Part shown: piece by piece, positions 2,959 through 62,539 of the stretch
Layout of the letters: each line of letters starts with the position of its first letter
Numbering within the stretch: the stretch's first letter is position 1
Origin: a virus
Taxonomy: Duplodnaviria; Heunggongvirae; Uroviricota; Caudoviricetes
DNA length: 64,000 bases
Virus record (IMG/VR): IMGVR_UViG_2706794662_000007
Reading direction: 5' to 3' (one strand)
Notes under the pieces: generated by a model
Databases searched by the model: none
What the model was told of the DNA's origin: nothing
Seen by the model: only the letters and a program-made list of their open reading frames with translations
Translations under genes and position numbers: made by a program

Positions 2959-4897
2959 TTACTTAACCTGGTGGCCAGGTTTAGCACCAGCATCCGGGCT
3001 TAACAGGAAGATATCTTTCCCGCCAGGACCGGCAGCCATCACCATGCCTTCAGAGATACCGAAGCGCATTTTACGTGGTGCCAGGTTAGCCACCATAATG
3101 GTGTGACGACCAATCAGTGCCTGTGGATCTGGATAAGCGGAACGGATGCCTGAGAAGACATTACGCTTTTCACCACCGAGATCCAGCGTCAGGCGAAGCA
3201 GTTTGTCAGAACCTTCGACAAACTCCGCGTTTTCAATCAGCGCCACACGCAGGTCAACTTTGGCGAAGTCGTCAAAGGTGATGGTTTCCTGAATCGGTTC
3301 GTCAGCCAGTGGGCCAGTTACCGGTGCAGCTGTGGCTTTCACTTCTTCTTTGGATGCTTCCACCAGTGCTTCCACCTGTTTCATATCGATACGGTTATAC
3401 AGTGCCTTGAACGGATTCACTTTATGGCCCAGAAGCGGTTGCTGGATACCATCCCAGGTCAGTTCTGTATTCAGGAATGCTTCTGCACGTTCAGTCAGTT
3501 TCGGCAGTACCGGTTTCAGGTACGTCATCAGCACGCGGAACAGGTTAATGCCCATAGAGCAAATCGCCTGCAGATCTGCATCGCGACCTTCCTGCTTCGC
3601 CACCACCCACGGAGCCTGTTCATCGACATAGCGATTAGCCAGGTCAGCCAATGCCATGATTTCACGGATAGCTTTACCAAATTCGCGGCTTTCCCATGCT
3701 TCGCCAATCACTTCAGCGGCATCAGTAAAGGTTTTGTACAGTTGCGGGTCAGCCAGTTCGCTTGTCAGCACGCCGTCAAAACGCTTGTTGATAAAGCCTG
3801 CATTACGGGAGGCCAGGTTAACCACTTTGTTCACGATATCGGCATTCACGCGCTGAACGAAATCTTCCAGGTTGAGATCGATATCATCAATGCGCGAAGA
3901 GAGTTTCGCAGTGTAGTAGTAACGCAGGCTGTCAGCGTCAAAATGATTCAGCCAGGTGCTGGCTTTAATAAAGGTGCCGCGAGACTTGGACATCTTCGCG
4001 CCGTTCACCGTCACATAGCCGTGAACAAACAGGTTGGTCGGCTTGCGGAAGTTGCTGCCTTCCAGCATGGCAGGCCAGAACAGACTGTGGAAGTAAACGA
4101 TATCTTTGCCGATGAAGTGGTACAGCTCGGCGGTGGAGTCTTTCTTCCAGTATTCGTCGAAGCTTACGCTGTCGCCGCGCTTGTCGCACAGATTCTTGAA
4201 AGAACCCATGTAGCCAATCGGCGCGTCCAGCCAGACGTAGAAATATTTGCCCGGCGCGTTCGNNNNNNNNNNNNNNNNNNNNNNNNNNNNNNNNNNNNNN
4301 NNNNNNNNNNNNNNNNNNNNNNNNNNNNNNNNNNNNNNNNNNNNNNNNNNNNNNNNNNNNNNNNNNNNNNNNNNNNNNNNNNNNNNNNNNNNNNNNNNNN
4401 NNNNNNNNNNNNNNNNNNNNNNNNNNNNNNNNNNNNNNNNNNNNNNNNNNNNNNNNNNNNNNNNNNNNNNNNNNNNNNNNNNNNNNNNNNNNNNNNNNNN
4501 NNNNNNNNNNNNNNNNNNNNNNNNNNNNNNNNNNNNNNNNNNNNNNNNNNNNNNNNNNNNNNNNNNNNNNNNNNNNNNNNNNNNNNNNNNNCTCTTCGCT
4601 GTGCGTCGAGTGATAGTTGTCATAGCTGATGTTAAAGCCTGCGAAATCAGTCTGATGTTCCTGACTCATTTCGCCAATCATCTGTTCCGGTGTGATACCA
4701 AGCTGCTGTGCTTTCAGCATGATTGGCGTACCGTGGGCATCGTCGGCACAGATGAAATTAACCTCGTGGCCGCGCATTCGCTGGTAACGAACCCAGACAT
4801 CAGCCTGGATGTGCTCCAGCATATGGCCGAGGTGGATTGAGCCGTTAGCGTACGGCAGCGCGCACGTCACCAGAATTTTCTTCGCGACTTGGGTCAT
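2959..4897 (-). CDS. metG: methionyl-tRNA synthetase (interrupted by N-run 4263-4591)
   Basis: N-terminus [29 protein letters not shown] (HIGH motif) and C-terminus ...GAKPGHQVK match enterobacterial MetG as recalled; KMSKS present; ~140 residues hidden in the gap. Confidence 0.95.
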
Positions 4898-6767: not shown

Positions 6768-7286
6768 CTAAAAATCAAANNNNNNNNNNNNNNNNNNNNN
6801 NNNNNNNNNNNNNNNNNNNNNNNNNNNNNNNNNNNNNNNNNNNNNNNNNNNNNNNNNNNNNNNNNNNNNNNNNNNNNNNNNNNNNNNNNNNNNNNNNNNN
6901 NNNNNNNNNNNNNNNNNNNNNNNNNNNNNNNNNNNNNNNNNNNNNNNNNNNNNNNNNNNNNNNNNNNNNNNNNNNNNNNNNNNNNNNNNNNNNNNNNNNN
7001 NNNNNNNNNNNNNNNNNNNNNNNNNNNNNNNNTTTAAAGGAAGATAGGTTCCCCATAGTAGCTGTCTGCCGTGCGCTCGTGTGAAATACCGGGCCATCTT
7101 CGGATTGCTATGCTGCTTAGGAGCGCCTGGTCTGTATGTCTGATACCCGGCCAACATCCCATCAAACCTGTATAGAGGGAATGTAACAACTCCTTCGCTT
7201 TCATCGATCCACTGTCTATATGGATGCACATCATAGCGGTAGTTACGAGTTAGCAAATGAGCTTCCAGCTTTCCAAATTTAGTCAT
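6768..7286 (-). CDS. hypothetical protein, C-terminal part masked by N-run
   Basis: ATG at 7286 with GAGGGA SD; ORF runs into N-run 6780-7032, so the end is unreliable. Confidence 0.3.
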   Translation of the reverse strand: MTKFGKLEAHLLTRNYRYDVHPYRQWIDESEGVVTFPLYRFDGMLAGYQTYRPGAPKQHSNPKMARYFTRAHGRQLLWGTYLPLXXXXXXXXXXXXXXXXXXXXXXXXXXXXXXXXXXXXXXXXXXXXXXXXXXXXXXXXXXXXXXXXXXXXXXXXXXXXXXXXXXXXXFDF

Positions 7287-9338: not shown

Positions 9339-9611
9339 TTAACCCGCAGTGCNNNNNNNNNNNNNNNNNNNNNNNNNNNNNNNNNNNNNNNNNNNNNNNN
9401 NNNNNNNNNNNNNNNNNNNNNNNNNNNNNNNNNNNNNNNNNNNNNNNNNNNNNNNNNNNNNNNNNNNNNNNNNNNNNNNNNNNNNNNNNNNNNNNNNNNN
9501 NNNNNNNNNNNNNNNNNNNNNNNNNNNNNNNNNNNNNNNNNNNNNNNNNNNNNNNNNNNNNNNNNNNNNNNNNNNNNNNNNNNNNNNNNNNNNNNNNNNN
9601 NNAGTTGCCAT
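9339..9611 (-). CDS. hypothetical protein almost fully masked by N-run
   Basis: ATG at 9611 (MAT...) behind conserved junction GGAGAGTGATATG; body is N. Confidence 0.25.
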   Translation of the reverse strand: MATXXXXXXXXXXXXXXXXXXXXXXXXXXXXXXXXXXXXXXXXXXXXXXXXXXXXXXXXXXXXXXXXXXXXXXXXXXXXXXXXXXXXTAG

Positions 9612-31135: not shown

Positions 31136-33058
31136 AGCTGCGCCCCTCTTTAACTTCCAGCGTAATAGTTTCCCGGAACCATGACTTCATCTCTTTATGG
31201 GAGATAATCAGCACAGTACCTCGCTCGCGAGCTTTGGACTCCAGAATACCCATGAGGCGTTCAAGACCGGCTGTATCGAGTGCATCGTCAATTTCGTCGC
31301 CGATAAACAAATCGATGTTTTTACTCGCCCGGTTACTAACCAGATCCTGCAATGCCAAAGAACACGCAATGCGAACCTTCCGCTTCTCACCACCAGAGAG
31401 GGTCTGGAACGACTTACTTGAACCTTTCTTCTGCACACTAATGTTGAATTTGTCGCGATACTCACCTTTTTTGGTGACATCCATCGTCGACCACTCAGCA
31501 GTAATATTCCCGTCAGACAACGTATTGAGATACTCGGCAGTGCGTGTATTCAGGAAAGGCGTAACAGACGTCAAAATATGAGAACGCACCCCGGCAGGAG
31601 AGTAGACCTGACGAGCTTTTTCCAATAGCAACGTTTGTTCCTGAATAGCCTTCAACTCATCTTTTAAGGACTTGAAGGTAGACTTACTGGATACCAGGTT
31701 ATCTTCGTGTCTGGCGATAAGAGCAATAAACGGATTAATCTCTTTTGATATACGATCGACCTCAGTACGAGCACGAGTCACAAGAGACTCAATAGCAACA
31801 ATCTCCTTCTCACGATGACGCAAAGATGAGAGTTGTTTCGTAAGCTCTTCAATCCGGGCAATGATAGCCGTTACATCAGGTGTCGTTTTAACAAGGGCAG
31901 ACTCAATGCTTAACGCTTTCTCAAGATTCGTTTTGTGTTTAGCCATTGCCTCTGCAAGTGTCTTCGCCTGACCAATTTCCTGACGTGCTTGTTCAATGAA
32001 ATTCTCCTTCACCGTTGATAGATCTTCTTCGCAGTAGGCTTTGCCACAAGTAGGGCATGGTGATCCCACTTTAGTACCAACCTCTTCTGCTTTGGTCTTA
32101 AAATTACGCGCGCGGTTCATTGCATCAGCCTGACTATTTTCTGTAGCTTTGATGCTTGCCCGAATATCAGTTATCGCACCACGAACNNNNNNNNNNNNNN
32201 NNNNNNNNNNNNNNNNNNNNNNNNNNNNNNNNNNNNNNNNNNNNNNNNNNNNNNNNNNNNNNNNNNNNNNNNNNNNNNNNNNNNNNNNNNNNNNNNNNNN
32301 NNNNNNNNNNNNNNNNNNNNNNNNNNNNNNNNNNNNNNNNNNNNNNNNNNNNNNNNNNNNNNNNNNNNNNNNNNNNNNNNNNNNNNNNNNNNNNNNNNNN
32401 NNNNNNNNNNNNNNNNNNNNNNNNNNNNNNNNNNNNNNNNNNNNNNNNNGATTGTCGACTCCAATTTGGTTTTAACCACATCCATACGTGCGGCAGCTGC
32501 ATTAGCTCGCTCACGAGCAATAGCGTAGGCGCGTGTCAGTCTGTCAACGCCAGCGGCTTCTTCTACGATGGTTTTGAGGTTTTTGTCGGACATTCCAGGT
32601 AAATCTGGCATAGCTTCTTGGCTCGCATAGATGGAAGCCATGAAAACCTCTTTAGATGCACCGATCAGACGCTCGACGAACTCTTGCGTCAGCGCATCTT
32701 TGCCTTTCGTCATATCGCCGTCTTCACCACGAACGATAAGCCGATTTTTGAACTCTTTGTGTTTACGGTGACGAATGATCGCATATCTCTTGCCTTCATC
32801 CTCGATGGTTACTGCAACACGACAGTTCTTTTCATGGTCGGTAGACAACACATCGTCACCCTTCACACCATGAGCTGTTTCGCCATAAAGACACCACATC
32901 AGGCTATTCATTAGCGTTGACTTTCCAGAGCCATTACTTGATGCGGAACTATCATCACTATTAACACCCTGAATGAGCACTAAACCACGCTGATCTAACT
33001 CGACCTCCGCGCTGGCGATAGCCATAAAATTCTCAACCTGGAGCTTTAAAAACTTCAT
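31125..33058 (-). CDS. sbcC: SbcC/Rad50-like ATPase (interrupted by N-run 32187-32449)
   Basis: N-terminal Walker A GSGKST; C-terminal signature LSGGE and Walker B DEIDDALD; coiled-coil middle. Confidence 0.75.
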
Positions 33059-35431: not shown

Positions 35432-35472
35432 GCTGTAAGCCGCGCCACGACTGGTCTGAAGTCATGTTCATG

Positions 35473-35573
35473 TATGCTGTCAGCGGTAATTGATAGTCTG
35501 TCAGCGGTTCACCGTATGCTGCCAACTGTTTTTGGTATTCTGTCAGCGGCAAATCAAGTATGCTGTCAGCGGT
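35473..35573. repeat. upstream iteron array: five 15-bp repeats TATGCTGTCAGCGGT at 21-22 bp spacing
   Basis: copies at 35473, 35494, 35515 (degenerate), 35537, 35559; overlaps repA promoter region. Confidence 0.8.
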
Positions 35574-35593
35574 TGAATGACAAAGGTGTCCAC

Positions 35594-36688
35594 ATGTCCA
35601 CAAAAAATAAAAAAGGTAAAAATAACAAAGAAGTAGAAGATAACATCGACAACTTTGAAGAAGGTTCCCTTGAATTGTACACAGGGGAACTTGTCCCTAA
35701 TAGCAACAATACAGTCCAACCAATTGCGTTGATGCGACTGGGGTTGTTCGTCCCCACGCTTAAGGGAACAAAATACAGTAAACGTAACAAGCCAAATGAG
35801 ATCGATGCTTCAAAGGAGCTTGTCCAGCTCGAAGTAGCCCGTTCTGAAGGCTATTCCGATATCAAGATAACCGGTCCTCGTCTCGACATGGATCATGATT
35901 TCAAAACGTGGGTGGGCGTTGTGCGTTCGCTGGCAGAATACGGCGAACCTAACGGTCGTGTCGAGTTAAGCATCACGAAATTTGCTAAGTTTTGTGGCTA
36001 TCCATCGTCACAGATCCGCAAAACACTCCGCGACCGGCTTACAAACAGTCTTTTGAAGATCATGCGTACAACTCTGTCTTTCCAGAGAACGTATGAAGAA
36101 AAGAACGTCGACGGCTCTAACAAGATCTCGCTTCTGATGGTGCACCTCATCAATAGCGTGGACTACAACGAGCAGAAAGATACGGTGGTGTTCTATGCAG
36201 AACCGAAGCTGGCCGAACTATATCGCTTTGACCATAAGGTTCTTTTGCAGTTAAAGGTTATCAATAAGCTACCACGCAAAGAAACAGCACAGGCTCTGTA
36301 CACCTTCATCGAAAGTCTTCCAACCAAGCCTGCGCCGGTATCGCTTGCTCGATTGCGTGCGCGACTCAATTTGAGTAGCAGGAATGTCAGCTCGCAGAAT
36401 CAGACTATACGTAACGGCTTAAAAGCTCTCCAAGATTTGGGCTATCTCGAATACAGCGAGATTAAGCGTGGGCGGTCGATCTATATCCAGATTCACAGCC
36501 GCAATCCAAAACTCAAAGTCGCACCGCCAAAACCTGAAGACATCGAACCCAAAAAACCAGATGAGAAAGCTGGGGAAATTGATGCCAAACAGAACATTAT
36601 CAACAAGATAACCGAACTTTCGCAGAATTTGACGCCTGAAAATATCAAGATGATTGAGATCCTTTCCAATAGTCTCAAACTGCTTTGA
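35594..36688 (+). CDS. repA: plasmid replication initiator RepA (P1 RepA-like)
   Basis: MSTKNKKG start; NSNNTVQPIALMRLGLFVP, DIKITGPRLDMD, ALYTFIESLP, HSRNPKLK resemble P1 RepA as recalled; flanked by iterons on both sides. Confidence 0.8.
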   Translation: MSTKNKKGKNNKEVEDNIDNFEEGSLELYTGELVPNSNNTVQPIALMRLGLFVPTLKGTKYSKRNKPNEIDASKELVQLEVARSEGYSDIKITGPRLDMDHDFKTWVGVVRSLAEYGEPNGRVELSITKFAKFCGYPSSQIRKTLRDRLTNSLLKIMRTTLSFQRTYEEKNVDGSNKISLLMVHLINSVDYNEQKDTVVFYAEPKLAELYRFDHKVLLQLKVINKLPRKETAQALYTFIESLPTKPAPVSLARLRARLNLSSRNVSSQNQTIRNGLKALQDLGYLEYSEIKRGRSIYIQIHSRNPKLKVAPPKPEDIEPKKPDEKAGEIDAKQNIINKITELSQNLTPENIKMIEILSNSLKLL

Positions 36689-37220
36689 TATGCTGTCAGC
36701 GGTGAAATGTATGCTATCAGCGGCTATTTTTCTGAAAAGTATGCTGTGAACGGTTAAAGATATGCTACCAGCGGTATAGTGAGATGAACGTATGCTGTGA
36801 GCGGTAAATCATCTATCACCACTCAATGCTCTGTCATACCTCCCCAGTGGTTACTAACCTCGAAGAGTGCATTCCATATAGGTTTGCGCTCACTAACATT
36901 CTATTGCTATTGCGCTGATTGCTTGTAGTGAAAGGCATTTATTGCCTGCTACTCCCTGATAGAACGTATGCTGTCAGCGGTGTTTTATTGAGGAATTTTT
37001 GTTTGGATATGCTATCAGCGGTAATTAATGGCATATGTCAGACATTCGTATGCTGCCAGCGGTAATTTTGTTCTGGTTATACCCATACCGGTACACATTA
37101 TTCATGCAATGTCTTAAGTATGCTGTCAGCGGTAAAAAATCGAGTAAAGTATGCTGTGAGCGGTGAGATAGACTCTCGATATGCTATCAGCGGTAGTTGA
37201 TTGTGTATGCTGTCAGCGGT
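36689..37220. repeat. downstream iteron arrays: 12 copies of TATGCT(G/A)(T/C)(C/G)AGCGG(T/C) in two clusters (incA-like)
   Basis: copies at 36689, 36710, 36740, 36761, 36791, 36967, 37008, 37049, 37119, 37150, 37180, 37206. Confidence 0.8.
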
Positions 37221-37267
37221 GACGACTATGAAATATGACTGCGGAACGTGCCGCAGTCAGTTTGCAT

Positions 37268-38030: not shown

Positions 38031-38306
38031 TCACTCAAAAGTGCTGATGCTTAAAATACGCTCAAGATGTTCAGCATCTTCATTACTGATTTGTTGAGTC
38101 TCTTCTACGTACCAACAGTTGCCGTTATGCCAACAAACACCATCATCATCAACCATCACTGAATCAGCGTCATGACCTGTATATTCAACAAGAGTACGCT
38201 GGATCAGCGCGTCAGTTTCTTCATCGTTAAGGCCATCGACTTTGACCATAAAAAGCGGAAACACGTCATAGACAGTGCTGGTAACGATTCGAACTAAAAC
38301 TCTCAT
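38031..38306 (-). CDS. hypothetical protein
   Basis: 91-aa ORF with conserved start region. Confidence 0.4.
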   Translation of the reverse strand: MRVLVRIVTSTVYDVFPLFMVKVDGLNDEETDALIQRTLVEYTGHDADSVMVDDDGVCWHNGNCWYVEETQQISNEDAEHLERILSISTFE

Positions 38307-38361
38307 GTGTTTTTCCTTTTGTGGTTAGTGTTTACTTATTTTGTTAGTTATGAATAGGCGA

Positions 38362-38787
38362 TCAATCTTCTTGGTTAGGGAAAAACTGTTCAATAACTCT
38401 GTCAACGGCTGTGTCTATATGGAGTAGATGCCACACAACCATATCTTTGCTTCCCATGCCTTGTGTGAATATCACGTCATACTTACGCCATGCGCAGTGG
38501 AACCAATATGCTGAGTCATCAATTGGTAAATCCTCTCCCGCCTCTTTGAAGTATTTCAGCAGCATTGCCTGCTCTGCCGTTGGCGTTGGACCTATTTCCT
38601 GAGCGTACATACGGATGAATCGCTGCCAGTCTGTCTCGTCGGGGGTTGGATCTGGTGGGGTCATTTCTGCGATAGCGTTTCGTAGCTGATGCGCCCAATC
38701 AGGTTCAGGAAAGCCTTTTGCTACTTCATCATCAATAACATCCAGAGCCACGTTTGCGGCATCGTAGAGTTTCTTAATTGCTGCCAT
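38362..38787 (-). CDS. hypothetical protein
   Basis: 141-aa ORF. Confidence 0.45.
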   Translation of the reverse strand: MAAIKKLYDAANVALDVIDDEVAKGFPEPDWAHQLRNAIAEMTPPDPTPDETDWQRFIRMYAQEIGPTPTAEQAMLLKYFKEAGEDLPIDDSAYWFHCAWRKYDVIFTQGMGSKDMVVWHLLHIDTAVDRVIEQFFPNQED

Positions 38788-38848
38788 GTTTACTTCTCCT
38801 TATAAATAGGAAAATAATCACCTTTGAAAAAATAAAGCAAAGATATAT

Positions 38849-39238
38849 TCACTCCGATACAAGACGTTTATATGCTTCGATGTCTCGACGTGCTTCACCG
38901 AGTTTTCTTCTTAGGTCCATATTTTCTGATTCAAGTTTTTCAATGTTTTTTTGGTATCGGCCACGATGTTCTTCCCAGGCATCCTGATATGCCTTCATAT
39001 ATGTCGTATTAGCCTTTCTTTTTGCCTGACGAACCGCGTGGTGATTTTCTACAAACCAGTCAGGGTCGTTAAATGCTGCTCTTGCGCATTTATACCAATA
39101 ATCGGTTGACTCTCTGTTTAACCAATGAATGGTGATAAATGGTAATCGAATAGACAGAATTTTTCGTTTGGAATCTCGCTCACCAAACATATGCCCTTTT
39201 TTTATCTTTAAACCGAACCCAGGTTGAATTAAAAGCAT
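38849..39238 (-). CDS. hypothetical protein (low-GC block)
   Basis: 129-aa ORF. Confidence 0.4.
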   Translation of the reverse strand: MLLIQPGFGLKIKKGHMFGERDSKRKILSIRLPFITIHWLNRESTDYWYKCARAAFNDPDWFVENHHAVRQAKRKANTTYMKAYQDAWEEHRGRYQKNIEKLESENMDLRRKLGEARRDIEAYKRLVSE

Positions 39239-39258
39239 TGTCAGTACCTCAGATGCAT

Positions 39259-39999
39259 TTATGGCAGTAATTCTTTACCGCTTTCCATTTTGGTGATAGA
39301 GACAGTAGGATCATCGTTAATGCATGATTCTGTGCCTAATGCTGCTAACCCTTTACGCATAACCGTGCCCGCAACATACGCCTCAATCTCCGCCTTTCCA
39401 GATGAGACAATTTCATCCATTTGTTCCTGCATTAATTCGGTAGCAAAGCACAGATTTTCAGGAAGGTTAGCTACAGCAGATGCTAGTTTTCTATATAGTT
39501 CTTCAAGGTCACGTTTTCCAGCTCTTCCTTTTTTCACAAGTTCACCTAGCTCTGAAACTTGCTGATTAAGTCGATCAATCTCACTATTCGTAGCGGCCTT
39601 TATTTGATCGTTGAATTTTTGCCGAATACTTTTTTGCTCGGCAATATCATGAACTCTAATTGAGTCTCCAATGGTTTTATATGAAATAGTGCATGGCACA
39701 CCTTCGCCCACTCCAAAACTGCTAACCATAGCAGCCCATTGTGCCTGGCTAAGTCTAATTTCAACTAAAGGCCGTCTATTGCAACTTCTTTGTGGGCGGG
39801 TTCGTTCATTGTCTAAGGACAGTTCCGCCTCGTAAACGCCTATTTCAATATAGTCTCTATGTTCCAGTTCTGAATCAAATAGGCGAATGCCAGTTGTGCT
39901 AACACGGCTTGTTTTCACAAGACCGAACGCTGGATGTGTTTGAATTTTTTCCCCATGTTTATTAAGGGTCGTTTTTGGTTCTTCAATTTTTCTTTTCAT
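39259..39999 (-). CDS. hypothetical protein (low-GC block)
   Basis: 246-aa ORF. Confidence 0.45.
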   Translation of the reverse strand: MKRKIEEPKTTLNKHGEKIQTHPAFGLVKTSRVSTTGIRLFDSELEHRDYIEIGVYEAELSLDNERTRPQRSCNRRPLVEIRLSQAQWAAMVSSFGVGEGVPCTISYKTIGDSIRVHDIAEQKSIRQKFNDQIKAATNSEIDRLNQQVSELGELVKKGRAGKRDLEELYRKLASAVANLPENLCFATELMQEQMDEIVSSGKAEIEAYVAGTVMRKGLAALGTESCINDDPTVSITKMESGKELLP

Positions 40000-40046
40000 C
40001 TTATTAACCTCTATGCTTCATGCGTAAAGCTAAATGACAATTTTTT

Positions 40047-40871
40047 TTAATATCCGGCGTATTCGTATTCTTCATTTAGACCGTATTCTTGTGGAGTGAT
40101 ACCAGGACAACATAACTCAAAGGCGAACTTGCGCCATTTGATTTTTTCTTCTGACGATTGTTTGTTATTCGCCGGTGCAATGTAGTCATATTCCCATTTG
40201 CCGTTGCGAAGTAAAATGAATCCGCAGTTATTGCCGAAGTCTTCGTCTGCATAACGTATTACAAACTCAAGGTGCGGGAACTTTCTAGCCATCGCTTGAT
40301 AAATTGGTTTTGGCATAGACCAGGCTGTTTCAAAGCGAATCACCAACTCACCACCAGTTGCGGCATGTCTTGCAAGACGTTTTTTATAGATTCGTTTTGC
40401 ATATGCTCGAACGTGTGTATGGCGGAAATTATGGCCGTACTTAATACGTGTAGGGATACGTTTTACGGGCATTTCGATGTTGTAGGCATTCCATTTTGTT
40501 CCCCAATTAGCTCGCGACCAGTCAAACCATGAGTAATAGCCATAGCGACGATAATTCTCAAGCCGCATAAGAGCCTGCTCTTTGATTTTGCGAATTTCCT
40601 TGCGTGTCATTCCTGATTCACGCATAGCTAATTCGACCTGTTCTGGAGTCTTTAATTCACCGAACATGTGGTCGTAAACTGTTTCGCCCGCCATTGCAGA
40701 GGCCATGCGCCTGATATGATTGTTTTCTTCCATTTCTATACTTTTCGGACGTCTGCAAATGGTATTAAAGTCAATTAGACCTTTTTTGTTAGTTATGGCA
40801 CGTATGAAATCTAAGCGTTGTTTATTTGTACCACCTATGACTCGGATTTCGTTTGTAATGTGGTTGGGCAT
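40047..40871 (-). CDS. hypothetical protein (low-GC block)
   Basis: 274 aa; contains His-hydrophobic-His (HTHV) and nearby YAKRIY, weak and non-canonical resemblance to HUH-type nucleases. Confidence 0.45.
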   Translation of the reverse strand: MPNHITNEIRVIGGTNKQRLDFIRAITNKKGLIDFNTICRRPKSIEMEENNHIRRMASAMAGETVYDHMFGELKTPEQVELAMRESGMTRKEIRKIKEQALMRLENYRRYGYYSWFDWSRANWGTKWNAYNIEMPVKRIPTRIKYGHNFRHTHVRAYAKRIYKKRLARHAATGGELVIRFETAWSMPKPIYQAMARKFPHLEFVIRYADEDFGNNCGFILLRNGKWEYDYIAPANNKQSSEEKIKWRKFAFELCCPGITPQEYGLNEEYEYAGY

Positions 40872-40878
40872 AATTAAC

Positions 40879-40892
40879 TTAACCTTTTAACA
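40879..40892 (-). promoter_or_regulatory. palindromic motif AACAAATTGTTTT upstream of gene 40047..40871
   Basis: same motif family as at 2810, 16403, 17131. Confidence 0.45.
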
Positions 40893-40966
40893 AATTGTTT
40901 TCTTGTGTGTGATAATAACGAGAATAAAACGGCGTCCAACTGGACGCCTGATCTTCTTAATGAGAG

Positions 40967-41797
40967 TTATTTCACTGTAATGAAAGGAGTGTTAGCCCCT
41001 TGAGTCATGTACTGCGGTAACTGGCCATTCCATTTATTGATGGCTTCCAGTTCCATAACGTTCGGGTTTTGACGCAGAGCTTCACCGCGCAGACGAATGG
41101 CGTCTGCTTCTGCTTGCGCACGAGCACGGATAGCATCAGCTTCACCATTAGCCTGTTCACGTAGCATATTCGCCTCAGCTTTACGTTGTTCAACTTCCTG
41201 CTGACGTTGCAGAGTACGCTGGTTAGCCGTTACTTTGGCGTTGATAGATTCAATGACGGTTTTTGGGTAATCAGGCTTTCCAACCCATGACAGGCTCAGT
41301 ACCTCAATACCAACCGGAGACATCTCTTTCTGAATATCTTTCAGTGCGTTGTCCAGCAATTGCGCCTTACCACCGTCGATAAATGAGTCAGTGGTCATAC
41401 GGCTGGCCAAACGGTTTAGAGAGTCGGCAATTTTCTGACGCAGATCTGATTCGGTGATATCGTCTACGCCTTTGCGATAGGTCTGGAACACCGTCGTTAC
41501 CTTGTCACGATTAACCAGATACGCAACGCCAATTTTGTGACCAATAGCAGTACCGTCACTCATCTGGAATGTGAACGGTTCGTCGTAGGTCTTCATTTGT
41601 TTGAAGGTCGGGAATACGTAAAGTTCGGTGTTAAGACCTGTCCATTGGCGACCAACGCCAACCACTTCACCGATCCCTTTGTCTTCACCTAATTTGTTTA
41701 CTTTGATGCCAACGTATCCAGGCTCCACGCGATCACAGCCAGTAAGACCCATTGTGCAAATAGCCGCCAGAGCAACTGCAAGTAAACCTTTCTTCAT
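40967..41797 (-). CDS. SPFH/band-7 family lipoprotein
   Basis: 276 aa, lipobox LTGC after signal peptide, prohibitin-like core and C-terminal coiled coil. Confidence 0.65.
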   Translation of the reverse strand: MKKGLLAVALAAICTMGLTGCDRVEPGYVGIKVNKLGEDKGIGEVVGVGRQWTGLNTELYVFPTFKQMKTYDEPFTFQMSDGTAIGHKIGVAYLVNRDKVTTVFQTYRKGVDDITESDLRQKIADSLNRLASRMTTDSFIDGGKAQLLDNALKDIQKEMSPVGIEVLSLSWVGKPDYPKTVIESINAKVTANQRTLQRQQEVEQRKAEANMLREQANGEADAIRARAQAEADAIRLRGEALRQNPNVMELEAINKWNGQLPQYMTQGANTPFITVK

Positions 41798-41800
41798 TAC

Positions 41801-42001
41801 TTATTTCCCCTTTGCTTTGATTAATGAGTTGATAAACTTACGACCAGCAATAAGACCGATTACAGGAGCACCAAAACCAACGATAACTCCAAACATGACG
41901 GCTAAATCACTCTTGGTAGAAATCAGCGACGGAACCAGTAAACCGTAGATGAGAGCCACTGAAACGCCTGTGGCTACTGCCAATAGATAGATTTTGATCA
42001 T
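41801..42001 (-). CDS. small membrane protein, likely partner of SPFH protein
   Basis: 66 aa, two hydrophobic segments, immediately upstream of the SPFH gene. Confidence 0.4.
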   Translation of the reverse strand: MIKIYLLAVATGVSVALIYGLLVPSLISTKSDLAVMFGVIVGFGAPVIGLIAGRKFINSLIKAKGK

Positions 42002-42093
42002 GTGTTTTCCTATGTGGTTGTTATGCGAAAATAATAAGTAAGTACTTATATATTTTCAAGAGATAAAAAAGGCGTCCTGTGGACGCCTTGTGT

Positions 42094-43184
42094 TTACTCT
42101 TCTACTGACTCGGTGGGGTTGTCTTTTGCTCTTCGGTCGTCGATTGCCTGCAAAGCCGCAATGATTTCAGCCAGTGGCTTCTCCCGATACATCTCGACGA
42201 TCTGCGATTTGGTGTATTTCTTGTCACCAATTTCAACTCGCCCGCTGGCGTTCTTTGGCAGGTATCCTTCTTCCAGCATGTACTCGACGAGCGATTCGAT
42301 AACGTCGAGGCCACGAGTAGGATCGAAGTAGAATTTCCAGGTGCATTTGCCATACGGTGGTGCAACTTTGTTTTTGATGCATTCTGCGCCTACGTCCTGG
42401 CCGATCTTCTCTTTACCATCCTTCATCACCGATGCACCAAGACGGATACGTACAGAAGCGTAGAACTTCGGTGAATCTCCACCTGGAGACGTAGTAGGGT
42501 CGCCAAACATTACACCGATTTTTGTGCGAACCTGATTCAAGAAGATGATGCAGGCGTTGTATTTGCGTGCCCACAAAGCCAGAGTAGGGAAGTTCGCACT
42601 TGTCGCACGAGCCAGTGCCGTATTGTCGTTCATGTTTAGCTGATCTTTGTCTTTGGCAGTGCCTTCAGCCATCTTTTCGAACTTCTCGGCTTTGGAGTTC
42701 GGAACCATAGACGCAAGTGAGTCAGCCACGATACAGATAGGTGCTGATTCAGGAATAAGCTCTTCATCACGTACCAATTTAAGAATTGTGCCGATCAACT
42801 CTACAGAGTCTTCGAAGGTATCAGGCTGCTTGTATACCCACTGACCGTCATCCTCATCTGCATTCAAACCATTGGCTACAGCCAGGCCAACGTCAAAACT
42901 GTTCTCATGATCGAGGANNNNNNNNNNNNNNNNNNNNNNNNNNNNNNNNNNNNNNNNNNNNNNNNNNNNNNNNNNNNNNNNNNNNNNNNNNNNNNNNNNN
43001 NNNNNNNNNNNNNNNNNNNNNNNNNNNNNNNNNNNNNNNNNNNNNNNNNNNNNNNNNNNNNNNNNNNNNNNNNNNNNNNNNNNNNNNNNNNNNNNNNNNN
43101 NNNNNNNNNNNNNNNNNNNNNNNNNNNNNNNNNNNNNNNNNNNNNNNNNNNNNNNNNNNNNNNNNNNNNNNNNNNTTTTGCCAT
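42094..43184 (-). CDS. RecA-like recombinase (interrupted by N-run 42918-43175)
   Basis: IIFLNQVRTKIGVMFGDPTTSPGG...FYASVRIRL matches the RecA core; ATG at 43184 with AAGGAG SD. Confidence 0.75.
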
Positions 43185-58265: not shown

Positions 58266-58341
58266 TGGTGCCGATTAACGGGATCGAACCGATGACCATT
58301 CGCTTACAAAGCGACTGCTCTACCAACTGAGCTAAATCGGC
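58266..58341 (-). tRNA. tRNA-Thr (anticodon UGU)
   Basis: acceptor GCCGATT/AATCGGC, D-arm TAGCTCAGTTGGTAGAGCA, anticodon loop TTTGTAA, T-loop TTCGATC, encoded CCA. Confidence 0.8.
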
Positions 58342-58345
58342 AATT

Positions 58346-58432
58346 TGGTGGGGAGTGATAGAGTCGAACCACCCGAGTCGCAATGACAGTAGATTTACAG
58401 TCTACCCCGCTACCTCTACGGACTAACTCCCC
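58346..58432 (-). tRNA. tRNA-Tyr (anticodon GUA), type II
   Basis: acceptor GGGGAGT/ACTCCCC, anticodon arm GTAGA-CTGTAAA-TCTAC, long variable arm, encoded CCA. Confidence 0.8.
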
Positions 58433-58437
58433 TAAAT

Positions 58438-58512
58438 TGGCGATGGTGGGTGGATTCGAACCACCGACCAATTGGTTAACAGCCAACTGCTCTACCGCTG
58501 AGCTACACCATC
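58438..58512 (-). tRNA. tRNA-Asn (anticodon GUU)
   Basis: perfect 7-bp acceptor GATGGTG/CACCATC, anticodon loop CTGTTAA, T-arm GGTGG-TTCGAAT-CCACC, encoded CCA; differs from E. coli tRNA-Asn as recalled. Confidence 0.85.
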
Positions 58513-61242: not shown

Positions 61243-62539
61243 TGTTGTTTTACCTCCATATGTTGATCGATTTGCTCATGTGTTTCTTTTGTTGTTTCTT
61301 CAAGCAACGCCGCATACACGTCAGTGATCGCTGTTTGTGATGTGGTGCTCTTCTTAACCATGCTATTAATCGTTACACTGTCACGTTTTCGTTTTAAAGT
61401 TCTGGCTTGTTTATTCCGTTCTTCAACCTCCTTAATGAGCGCGGTCATATCTTCGAAATACAGAGATTCTCCTTTACGAATCTCTTCAACCATCATTTTT
61501 AACGCCTTGCATTTGCCTGCTTTGATAGCGGTTGCGCACGACTGGAATGAAGTTCGAGGAAGACGGTTTTCTTTGAAGGCAAGAATGGTGTGCTGGCAAA
61601 CGGAGTAGCTGCAATATGCCGACTCACCGTTTATNNNNNNNNNNNNNNNNNNNNNNNNNNNNNNNNNNNNNNNNNNNNNNNNNNNNNNNNNNNNNNNNNN
61701 NNNNNNNNNNNNNNNNNNNNNNNNNNNNNNNNNNNNNNNNNNNNNNNNNNNNNNNNNNNNNNNNNNNNNNNNNNNNNNNNNNNNNNNNNNNNNNNNNNNN
61801 NNNNNNNNNNNNNNNNNNNNNNNNNNNNNNNNNNNNNNNNNNNNNNNNNNNNNNNNNNNNNNNNNNNNNNNNNNNNNNNNNNNNTAGCAATCCTGACCAC
61901 CTTCCAAGCAAATTCCGCCATTACGCCATCACATGCCTTCCCAGCATCAATAACGATATGCACCAGATCCAACTGGCTTTTGCACATGTCGCAAAGAGAC
62001 GCATACTCACTCTCTCTGATTACATTTACGGCATCATTAGCCCCTTTATTAAGCAAGACTTCCAACAGATTTTTCGGGGTAACGAAATCTGCTTTCAGAG
62101 ATAATGTCTTTTCACCACTTATCGAACGCAAGTACTCTTCGTAGTTATTCTTCATCAAACCGCTGCTGCGCATTGCTAGAACTGCTTCTTGAATGGCCGC
62201 TTCAATAGTTTCGTCGTTTGAAAGACAAAAAACGGTATTTGTGTAGATCACTCTGCCATCAAGCCATGCTCCAACCTGCACTTTAAGACTGAGCGGGTTT
62301 TCTTTGCTAATAAAAACAACTAATGCAGAACGTCGTGCACAAGAAGGTTCACCCCATACGTGTAACTTAACCTTCAGATAAGGTAGCCCCGGTAGCGGGA
62401 TCTCGACCAAACGAGTGGCGATATGATCCATTGCTGTTTTTACCGCTTTTTCAATGATGTCTAGTCGATTGCTCTCGCTGATTTCTAAACCAGTTTTATC
62501 AATGATGTCGCAGGCTAATTTCTGAATTTCGTCTTTCAT
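61239..62539 (-). CDS. hypothetical replication-associated protein (interrupted by N-run 61635-61884)
   Basis: two ORF pieces either side of the gap, between primase and ligase; frame continuity cannot be verified. Confidence 0.35.

Follow-up and report, generated by a model that had tools for sequence, protein, structure and literature searches.

Phage Cyrano, which has been described as an SSU5-like phage-plasmid (PMC9928086), is a close relative of the element analysed here. The window, that is, the whole 64,000-nt stretch of DNA that was analysed, belongs to an SSU5-like phage-plasmid of E. coli and Shigella, as indicated by its high identity to described elements, its iteron-type Rep, and its phage replication genes; elements of this type measure ∼100 to 110 kb. 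Positions 38300 to 41900 are 100% identical to the E. coli O104:H4 plasmid p09EL50 and, likewise, to Shigella sonnei plasmids of ∼108 kb. Most of the genes flanking the locus discussed below share 96 to 100% protein identity with Cyrano; the diverged ones are Rep (48%) and a small membrane protein (71%). The element and its sequence are already present in public databases, where the identical copies are annotated as hypothetical or DUF1281-family proteins.

A sequence-only reading of this DNA had singled out three consecutive genes of low GC content, downstream of the replicon, as a horizontally acquired accessory or defence cassette that might encode a rolling-circle initiator. The arrangement itself was confirmed: minus-strand ORFs, here g1, g2, and g3, occupy exactly positions 38849 to 40871 (the block), downstream of a Rep3-type initiator gene with its iterons. 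The features of the region are the following.

35474 to 36688: Rep3-type initiator gene
35468 to 35573 and 36684 to 37220: iterons (GTATGCTGTCAGCGGT), about 15 copies flanking the Rep3 gene
38362 to 38787, minus strand: flanking DUF7238 gene, backbone (Pfam PF23885, E = 5e-38; 94% identical in Cyrano)
38788 to 38848, minus strand: left junction, an intergenic spacer that separates g1 from the DUF7238 gene, at whose start codon the similarity to Cyrano sets in again
38849 to 39238, minus strand: g1, 129 aa, C-terminal coiled coil; homologous to a gene of the lambdoid nin region
39259 to 39999, minus strand: g2, a 246-aa phage protein
40047 to 40871, minus strand: g3, 274 aa, DUF1281_C/Api92-like; first of the three in transcriptional order
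40872 to 40966, minus strand: right junction, the g3 leader; its counterpart in Cyrano, where the block is lacking, is the DUF7238 leader, to which it can be aligned
40931 to 40948: conserved GC-rich hairpin in the g3 leader, downstream of the SPFH gene, terminator-like in the scan
40967 to 41797, minus strand: flanking SPFH/Band-7 lipoprotein gene, backbone (Pfam PF01145, E = 2.6e-30; 100% identical in Cyrano)

Each of the three genes is preceded by a Shine-Dalgarno-like sequence and strongly matches a PHROG family (E = 1e-76 to 1e-106). Comparison with a 96%-identical variant plasmid yields dN/dS values of 0.10 for g1, 0.04 for g2, and 0.13 for g3. All three are real genes under purifying selection. 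The GC content of the block is indeed lower than that of the replication module, but the dip is modest: 41.1%, compared to 45.7% for the whole window and 45 to 49% for the flanking genes and rep, which places the block among the lowest ∼6% of windows (5.8% of the N-free 2,023-bp windows are equal or lower). Similar dips begin near 14.05, 20.0, and 54.85 kb.

The block is absent from Cyrano, and the junctions are clean and coincide with gene boundaries. In other plasmids, the left spacer holds an inserted NinX gene, and the DUF7238 gene occurs in elements both with and without the block. A transposon-like insertion was considered and rejected, given that neither direct nor inverted repeats were found at the flanks of the block. 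The stem of the hairpin in the right junction recurs at 42071 to 42087, with a chance expectation of 0, and a scan against Rfam detected no RNA family for the block or its surroundings.

The block is present in 25 of the ∼190 matching Escherichia and Shigella plasmids and in 16 of 5,426 complete E. coli genomes. Together with its absence from Cyrano, this distribution bears out the description of the block as accessory; it is dispensable and not part of the core. The layout around it varies. Some sister plasmids carry the block together with NinX, Salmonella elements carry the order g3-g2-NinX, Klebsiella elements carry g2 without g3, and in Pectobacterium and Moellerella elements, the pair lies across the SPFH gene, in the order g2-g3. 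Comparison of the neighbourhoods across related elements thus reveals a variable slot but no single cassette.

A clear signal of exchange comes from g1. Between otherwise near-identical plasmids, dS of g1 is 0.56, compared to 0.02 to 0.10 for its neighbours, which indicates that the g1 allele has been replaced and that this gene is clearly exchanged. The g1 protein matches phrog_1511 (E = 2.7e-76, residues 1 to 128 of 133) and belongs to a narrow, enterobacterial family of 77 clusters. At the nucleotide level, g1 is 82% identical (∼80% at the amino acid level) to the gene located between ninE and ninF in the lambdoid phages HK630 (HK630_055, which sits between NinE and NinF), HK629, and mEpX2 and in Stx phages, including VT1-Sakai (H0039/H0040). 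In P22-like phages, the ninE-ninF slot holds NinX, and in the sister plasmids, a NinX-family gene is found beside g1 or in its place, although g1 itself does not match the NinX model PF10765. Unlike its lambdoid homologues, g1 sits in the replication region of a phage-plasmid rather than in a nin operon. By these comparisons, g1 is a swappable gene common to SSU5-like elements and the lambdoid ninE-ninF slot.

The histories of g2 and g3 look different, as both occupy a corresponding region in the SSU5-like elements of Salmonella, Pectobacterium, and Moellerella. In Salmonella, g2 and g3 are 62 to 66% identical to those in the window, similar to the neighbouring small accessory genes (64 to 74%) and below the core genes (83 to 93%). 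In Pectobacterium and Moellerella, g3 (44%) is close to the backbone (46 to 54%), and g2 is lower (29%). Both g2 and g3 are thus long established in the SSU5-like elements of Escherichia, Salmonella, Pectobacterium, and Moellerella, and many E. coli lineages have lost them. The horizontal acquisition supposed for the block is supported only in part, through g1. Because each of the three occurs without the others, they do not form a fixed unit, and the block is not one freshly imported cassette. An obligate g2-g3 pair was rejected as well: a g3-family gene lies within 4 kb in only 6 of the 69 viral loci with g2 homologues, and Klebsiella elements carry g2 alone. Relatives of g3 also turn up by themselves in the early regions of prophages, where integrase, DNA methylase, and HNH genes are close by. 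Still, in four genera, g2 and g3 remain neighbours although their order can be flipped, which could reflect a functional link, contrary to full independence.

The block shares its orientation with the replication and recombination genes. A run of minus-strand genes extends from those for DNA polymerase, a gp32-like SSB, a flap exonuclease, and RecA down to a P1 Cra-like gene, and the final stretch of this run, from the hairpin at 40931 to 40948 to a bidirectional terminator at 37236 to 37259, holds the block. In a sigma-70-like scan, the sole 10/12 promoter-like match on the minus strand precedes the SPFH operon, and g2 contains an internal 9/12 match; the coding strand has no such match from the hairpin to g3. 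Orientation and consensus scans together suggest that the block is transcribed with the early replication and recombination genes, either through read-through or with the help of a promoter that escaped recognition. Poor expression or separate regulation would be an equally good reading of the hairpin ahead of g3.

As a whole, the locus is best explained by three independently exchangeable accessory genes that occupy a variable slot of SSU5-like elements and act as early helpers, a reading to which we assign a probability of roughly 0.6. Under this explanation, g1, g2, and g3 would not be parts of one machine, nor replication initiators, nor genes that protect the host, but dispensable functions used early, in host entry or takeover, for example, in counter-defence or host modulation. 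The slot around the SPFH gene, between RecA and rep, is a recombination-prone accessory site that trades genes with lambdoid nin regions and matters for the diversification of clinically common elements of E. coli, Shigella, Salmonella, and Klebsiella.

The explanation in terms of exchangeable early helpers has to be weighed against one in which g2, possibly with g3, is an auxiliary factor of DNA replication or recombination, for instance, a DNA-binding accessory of the RecA/gp32/FEN/SbcCD module. The g2 protein matches phrog_6452 (E = 2e-87) but no Pfam family. Its AF2 model (pLDDT 82.7) comprises an N-terminal beta-rich domain, approximately aa 9 to 115, and a long helical hairpin or coiled coil, approximately aa 125 to 224, and the conserved residues include H22-P-A-F-G, S43, H47, Q87-W-A, and G100-x-P-C-T104. 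The sequence profile of g2 retrieves only coiled coils from the PDB, and a Foldseek search of the PDB with the model found nothing below an E value of 0.3. The g2 protein is phage-restricted and combines a beta domain with a coiled coil. An auxiliary role in replication is suggested by the position of g2 between the RecA/SPFH genes and rep in Escherichia, Salmonella, Klebsiella, Enterobacter, and Citrobacter, by the persistent g2-g3 adjacency, by the basic helix of g3 in this clade (seven Lys or Arg, no Asp or Glu), and by weak Foldseek matches of the g2 N-terminal domain to OB-fold SSB and PriB (E = 1.7 to 3). These matches, however, are not significant (probability 0.01 to 0.06), no nucleic-acid-binding Pfam domain was found, and g2 lacks a recurrent replication-gene partner in the wider virosphere. 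Furthermore, most of the E. coli members, including the viable Cyrano (PMC9928086), do without both g2 and g3. We therefore consider an auxiliary replication factor unlikely. Among the neighbours of g2 at the 69 viral loci, the gene clusters consisted only of antisense artefacts and SSU5-specific genes, and a small ORF that overlaps the g2 start in distant phages was discarded as a conserved partner, given that these ORFs are mutually unrelated.

The g3 protein belongs to a very large family. It matches PF18406 (DUF1281_C, “YubB ferredoxin-like domain”) over aa 171 to 242 with 57.8 bits, against a gathering threshold of 22.8 (E = 1.1e-15), as do all 25 aligned relatives; neither g3 nor any of these 25 matches PF06924, the N-terminal DUF1281 family, at E ≤ 0.01. 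Because PF06924 is unmatched, g3 is placed in the wider DUF1281_C superfamily, outside the subfamily of DUF1281 proper. Pfam, NCBIfam, and PADLOC, run on the three proteins together with their neighbours, yielded nothing for g3 beyond DUF1281_C and, for g1 and g2, no more than coiled-coil noise. A profile search at E ≤ 1e-3 recovered 13,333 clusters, and nearly all matches start at residue 1 of the protein; at 50% identity, the family numbers at least 13,000 clusters, from Proteobacteria, Bacteroidota, Firmicutes, and others. It is among the larger families of mobile elements that lack a function, even though a crystal structure was released in 2006, and literature searches on DUF1281, Api92, YubB, PF18406, PF06924, and yubB in the “leading region” returned no functional study. 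The YubB gene presumably lies in the leading region of the F plasmid, but a tblastn search of 72,556 plasmids with g3 recovered no F-type plasmid among its 47 records, of which 43 are non-mobilizable and, for the most part, of phage-plasmid size. The sequence features of g3 are the following.

40851 to 40871, minus strand: N terminus Met-Pro-Asn-His-Ile-Thr-Asn; alignments A1 and A4 show no variation at M1, P2, or N3
40482 to 40505, minus strand: motif W-G-T-K-W-N-A-Y, aa 123 to 130; T125, K126, and W127 are invariant
40347 to 40469, minus strand: lineage-specific insert, approximately aa 135 to 175, with the basic helix Y-x-K-R-x-x-K-K-x-L-x-R
40386 to 40421, minus strand: “HUH-like” stretch H151-T-H153-VRA-Y157-AKRI-Y162
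40221 to 40250, minus strand: motif A-D-E-D-x-G-x-N-x-G, aa 208 to 217; its columns are invariant in alignments A1 and A4

Among 252 family members, the N-terminal MPN is found in 241 and MPNH in 223, TKWN in 238, and DEDxGxN in 233; W123, N128, A129, and Y130 are conserved at ≥90%, and TAW is a further, invariant signature motif. In the model, g3 is an alpha/beta protein, DUF1281_C/Api92-like, that starts with a strand (4 to 12) and a helix (16 to 26) followed by short strands. Because all the signature motifs map to strand ends or loops of the model, the invariant residues point to a single candidate pocket for catalysis or ligand binding.

The named protein that g3 resembles in structure is Api92 of Yersinia pseudotuberculosis (PDB 2ijr), but the similarity is distant. 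The sequence identity is 12 to 15%, PDB sequence searches with g3 and two g3 profiles gave no match, such that the g3-subfamily profiles do not retrieve 2ijr, and the global superposition is poor (TM 0.37), so the arrangement of the domains is different; the g3 clade also adds the ∼45-aa basic helix. Another likeness concerns the N terminus. In the tautomerases 4-OT and MIF and in Fpg/Nei glycosylases, an N-terminal Pro is catalytic, and in g3, the invariant P2 would be exposed after removal of Met, directly ahead of a beta-alpha-beta unit, the position of Pro-1 in the tautomerases. This is no more than a resemblance, as g3 shows no fold similarity to 4-OT, MIF, or CHMI.

The genomic surroundings of g3 relatives recall polyvalent proteins, whose LPD domains have been proposed to facilitate the early phase of invasion (PMC5512222). 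Like solo domains of these proteins, the relatives are small accessory genes in early regions, near methylases, LPD11, and SSB. Among the 138 genes adjoining g3 relatives at 73 loci of species-representative genomes, there are 31 DNA methyltransferases, 5 LPD11, and 1 LPD28, along with SSB, ERF, antirepressor, and HNH genes, and one small protein cluster consists of DUF1281_C-LPD28 fusions. On the other hand, DUF1281_C is not named in the description of polyvalent proteins (PMC5512222), and the association amounts to the one fusion and to lineage-restricted neighbourhoods. Methylase adjacency was discarded as a strong signal for g3: the raw 31 of 138 neighbours shrink, after clustering at 50% identity, to 2 to 3 of 20 lineages, mostly Clostridia. 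Within the window, no polyvalent protein adjoins the block. It is conceivable, although rather unlikely, that the g3 family is an unrecognised family of enzymes of phages, plasmids, and integrative elements, with an active site formed by the N-terminal Pro and the TKWN, TAW, and ADEDxGxN motifs, that would act soon after entry, its substrate being of the host or associated with DNA, for example, in counter-defence beside orphan DNA methylases, and that the basic helix would tether the enterobacterial clade to nucleic acid. The strictly conserved Pro-Asn-His and the acidic motif offer a concrete, testable handle on the function.

The proposal that the block protects the host, as a cassette for anti-phage defence or superinfection exclusion that the resident plasmid prophage would express, fits several features of the locus. 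In temperate phages, such variable slots are a common place for defence genes, the block combines a variable hotspot with low GC content and a patchy distribution, and the adjoining SPFH lipoprotein and small membrane protein are of kinds sometimes linked to exclusion. However, a search of PADLOC-DB v2 produced no significant match: there was none for g2 and g3, and the similarity between g1 and LmuB (E = 0.007, 12.8 bits) involves the coiled coil only. The genes point in the same direction as those for lytic replication, the scan of the coding strand gave no sigma-70-like promoter of their own between the hairpin and g3, and the three occur separately elsewhere; relatives of g3, moreover, have phage early genes and methylases as neighbours and do not sit in chromosomal defence islands. 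Defence is thus distinctly improbable, and the role of exchangeable early helpers is preferred. The outcome of the analysis is mostly negative in this respect, with no recognisable defence system at the block and no hidden rolling-circle replicon.

The latter possibility arose from the His-hydrophobic-His motif reported in g3 ahead of YAKRIY. H151-T-H153 and YAKRIY both exist, but the central residue, Thr, is not a hydrophobic one, and the spacing is non-canonical, as the sequence-only reading had itself noted, with Tyr157 following His153 after three residues. In HUH Rep enzymes, the catalytic Tyr is typically tens of residues away from the HUH motif, and in the relaxase order, the Tyr is N-terminal to it. 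The frequency of such patterns in shuffled g3 sequences (HxH in 19%, and HxH followed by Tyr within 10 residues in 10%) implies that the motif is no more than expected by chance. Furthermore, it lies in an insert that is missing from most relatives: TKWN and TAW are a median of 16 aa apart, and the distance is at least 40 aa in only 56 of 235 members. Among these 56 insert-bearing homologues, Y157 is retained in 53, R160 in 55, and K164 in 54, whereas both histidines are found in 2, H151 being mostly replaced by Lys, Glu, or Pro and Y162 by Phe; across the family, just 8 of 252 members contain a His-hydrophobic-His at any position. In the model, a helix spans residues 155 to 172, and confidence is reduced across the motif region (pLDDT 68 to 70 for the blocks at 141 to 160). 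Hence, despite the local motif, the ferredoxin-like beta-sheet domain of g3, which recalls the ferredoxin-like core of HUH enzymes, and the adjacent replicon, a divergent HUH endonuclease (Rep or relaxase) in which H-T-H would bind metal and Tyr157 or Tyr162 would nick DNA for a second mode of replication or mobilisation has a very nearly negligible chance of being correct, as neither Pfam, at E ≤ 0.1 for Rep, relaxase, and Y1-transposase families, nor fold searches detected any similarity of g3 to Rep, relaxase, or TnpA. The H-T-H...YAKRIY stretch is instead a chance by-product of the basic helix of this clade and not a rolling-circle signature.

The block consists of three consecutive genes, located exactly where the sequence-only reading had placed them, of which g3 is transcribed first:

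38849-39238, minus strand, ORF g1
39259-39999, minus strand, ORF g2
40047-40871, minus strand, ORF g3

Each is preceded by a ribosome-binding site and has strong PHROG matches, and a comparison with the variant plasmid p009_B (96% identical) gives dN/dS values of 0.10 for g1, 0.04 for g2 and 0.13 for g3; these are functional genes. The low GC content that drew attention to the block is genuine yet modest (41.1%, versus a window value of 45.7% and 45-49% in the neighbors): about 6% of 2-kb windows are equally low, and further dips occur elsewhere in the window.

Positions 38300-41900 match plasmid p09EL50 of E. coli O104:H4 (NC_018651) and several ~108-kb Shigella sonnei plasmids at 100% identity, and "Escherichia phage CMS-2020a" at 99.9%. 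Around the block lie a Rep3-type initiator gene with its iterons and genes for an SbcD-like nuclease, a RecA/UvsX-like recombinase, a flap exonuclease, a gp32-like SSB and DnaE. The close relative Cyrano (pLF82) has been described as an SSU5-like phage-plasmid producing siphovirus particles (PMC9928086). Thus, the block sits in a known, much-sequenced type of element, and as a finding, it is ordinary and already in public data. It is carried by 25 of ~190 related plasmids and by 16 of 5,426 complete E. coli genomes, plasmid borne every time, and is dispensable. In Cyrano, the gene for an SPFH/Band-7 lipoprotein (40967-41797 in the window) is followed directly by the DUF7238 gene (38362-38787), and the leader of the latter is the one found upstream of g3 in the window; therefore, the junctions of the block fall exactly on gene boundaries. 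No repeats flanking the block were found. The content of the slot varies as follows:

Window (p09EL50 type): SPFH, g3, g2, g1, DUF7238
Cyrano and the majority of E. coli relatives: SPFH, DUF7238 (block absent)
A subset of E. coli and E. albertii plasmids: g3, g2, g1, NinX
Salmonella relatives: g3, g2, NinX; SPFH gene deleted
Klebsiella relatives: g2 present, g3 absent
Pectobacterium and Moellerella relatives: g2 followed by g3, on the opposite side of SPFH

Given its deletion in the Salmonella element, the SPFH gene is also dispensable in this slot. What is left there (locus L004, 4663-4905, compared with 40967-42001 of the window) is an 80-aa fusion that joins the small membrane protein to the final 24 residues of SPFH, which are 100% identical. 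In one E. coli plasmid (H85, NZ_JBYMEV010000003.1, 69476-71862), an IS1 transposase insertion splits the g3-g2 region.

The initial suggestion of a horizontally acquired accessory cassette holds as far as the accessory status and the exchange of g1 are concerned, but not for g2 and g3, nor for the three genes as a unit. Between two otherwise near-identical plasmids, dS is 0.56 for g1 versus 0.02-0.10 for g2, g3 and the flanks, so g1 has clearly been swapped; its family is narrow and enterobacterial, and it is 82% identical at the nucleotide level to the gene between ninE and ninF of HK630, HK629, mEpX2 and many Stx phages. Identity of the Salmonella relatives to the window is 62% for g2 and 66% for g3, similar to adjoining small accessory genes (64-74%) and lower than core genes (83-93%); for Pectobacterium and Moellerella, g3 (44%) comes near the backbone (46-54%), and g2 (29%) falls below it. 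This divergence marks g2 and g3 as long established in the SSU5-like lineage, with loss from many E. coli members. Among SSU5-like elements, those of Escherichia, Salmonella, Klebsiella, Enterobacter and Citrobacter have g2 homologs, and more distant ones occur in 69 IMG/VR viral contigs; a g3-type gene lies within 4 kb in only 6 of these 69 viral loci, and g3 relatives stand alone in prophage early regions. Outside the SSU5-like lineage, the three genes are unlinked. No Pfam family was found for g2, and its sequence matches are coiled coils only; the structural model (pLDDT, 82.7) combines a beta-rich N-terminal domain with a long helical hairpin and has no significant structural neighbors.

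Reading along the minus strand, the RecA gene is followed by a terminator-like hairpin, and a promoter-like site lies upstream of the genes for the small membrane protein and SPFH. Two hairpins (40931-40948 and 42071-42087) share the stem GGCGTCC...GGACGCC (chance expectation, 0); both are intergenic, just after a minus-strand gene (SPFH and RecA, respectively), and are followed by a T-rich tail. They resemble a terminator or attenuator module that has been reused. The former precedes g3 and is kept in Cyrano, and no sigma-70-like site was found between it and g3. A promoter-like 9/12 match is located inside g2 (39874-39847), and a bidirectional terminator (37236-37259) closes the unit after the Cra-like gene. 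Expression of the block probably depends on read-through.

The protein encoded by g3 belongs to Pfam DUF1281_C (57.8 bits; cutoff, 22.8), and its newer RefSeq label is "DUF1281 family ferredoxin-like fold protein." It is only distant kin of Api92: a PDB sequence search with g3 gave no match, and the PF06924 N-terminal domain was not found in it. When 1.84 billion representatives were searched with a profile, 13,333 clusters matched at E values of ≤1e-3 and 7,320 at ≤1e-10, nearly all aligning from residue 1, with relatives in Proteobacteria, Bacteroidota, Firmicutes, Chloroflexota and others. We found no paper assigning a function to this family, and DUF1281_C, uncharacterized and very large, is the only lead here worth following. 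When g3 was aligned first with 24 relatives and later with 45, at identities as low as 27%, the invariant positions were M1-P2-N3 (H4 being at least 90% conserved), T125-K126-W127 within WGTKWNAY, T182-A183 within TAW, and A208-D-E-D-x-G-x-N-x-G217; among 252 family members, 241 start with MPN, 238 have TKWN and 233 have DEDxGxN. A defined site is suggested by the invariant Pro near the N terminus and by the acidic loop. With Pro in second position, Met can be removed, and tautomerases as well as Fpg/Nei use a free N-terminal Pro in catalysis. Because no fold match places g3 in either of these families, an enzyme of that kind is considered only as a hypothesis.

The genes directly adjacent to g3 relatives were surveyed at 73 loci in species-representative genomes (138 genes). 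DNA methyltransferases account for 31 of the 138, and the others include LPD11 and LPD28 domains, SSB, ERF, antirepressors and HNH; in one protein, DUF1281_C is fused to LPD28. The LPD domains have been proposed to aid phages and conjugative elements in the early phase of invasion (PMC5512222). Methylase adjacency is limited to 2 or 3 of 20 lineages (collapsed at 50% identity) and therefore supports only the general statement that g3 relatives belong to the early or establishment regions of mobile elements. The block, whose anatomy and family assignments are shown, consists of three separate, dispensable accessory genes in a recombination-prone slot; we infer that they are expressed early and that they most probably help the element to establish itself or to take over the host. 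An auxiliary role of the block in replication or recombination is conceivable, if unlikely. Somewhat less likely still is the host-protective defense cassette proposed from the sequence, PADLOC having detected no defense component in the block.

That g3 is an HUH enzyme is highly improbable. The string on which this idea was based exists (residues 151-162, H-T-H...YAKRIY), but its central residue is Thr, not hydrophobic, and shuffled g3 sequences contain HxH in 19% of cases and HxH followed by Tyr within 10 residues in 10%. The string is part of a ~45-residue insert separating TKWN from TAW that most relatives lack (median gap, 16 aa; long form in 56 of 235 members); position 151 in the 56 is mostly K, E or P, both His residues are kept in only 2, and His-hydrophobic-His occurs anywhere in only 8 of 252 family members. 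The conserved part of the insert is a basic helix, Y157-x-K-R-x-x-K-K-x-L-x-R. Overall, g3 likely possesses a defined catalytic or ligand-binding site plus this clade-specific helix.

Many mobile elements of Clostridia have a DUF1281_C-family gene that starts within 0-16 nt of the end of a C5 cytosine DNA methylase gene, or overlaps it, often with a D12-class adenine methylase directly behind (Clostridia genomes L108, L131, L133, L143, L145, L149, L151, L152 and L162, around position 4000); this tight sandwich suggests translational coupling. The Rep3-type initiator gene of the window has a 16-nt iteron (GTATGCTGTCAGCGGT) on either side, in about 15 copies overall (35468-35573 and 36684-37220), as in P1/F-type replicons. 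The mechanically called Rep start, 35474, falls within the iterons on the upstream side, and the real start probably lies farther downstream; RepA of Cyrano is annotated at 351 aa. The RecA/UvsX-like gene (42094-43170) encodes ~357 aa in the window and p09EL50 versus 779 aa in Cyrano (loci compared, L002 5708-8047 and L026 157-2544), and the protein of an IMG/VR relative reads GPPSAGK-CVTADTMLL... right behind the P-loop; it looks as though some relatives carry an intein in the ATPase motif that is absent from the window. Seven masked N runs of 250-329 nt (1,858 N in total), one of which breaks the RecA-like gene a short way upstream of the block, lower the apparent GC in the composition table (4263-4591, 6780-7032, 9353-9602, 13174-13428, 32187-32449, 42918-43175 and 61635-61884). 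Elsewhere in the window, Rfam at the gathering threshold identifies the following:

58269-58512, minus strand, three clustered tRNA genes
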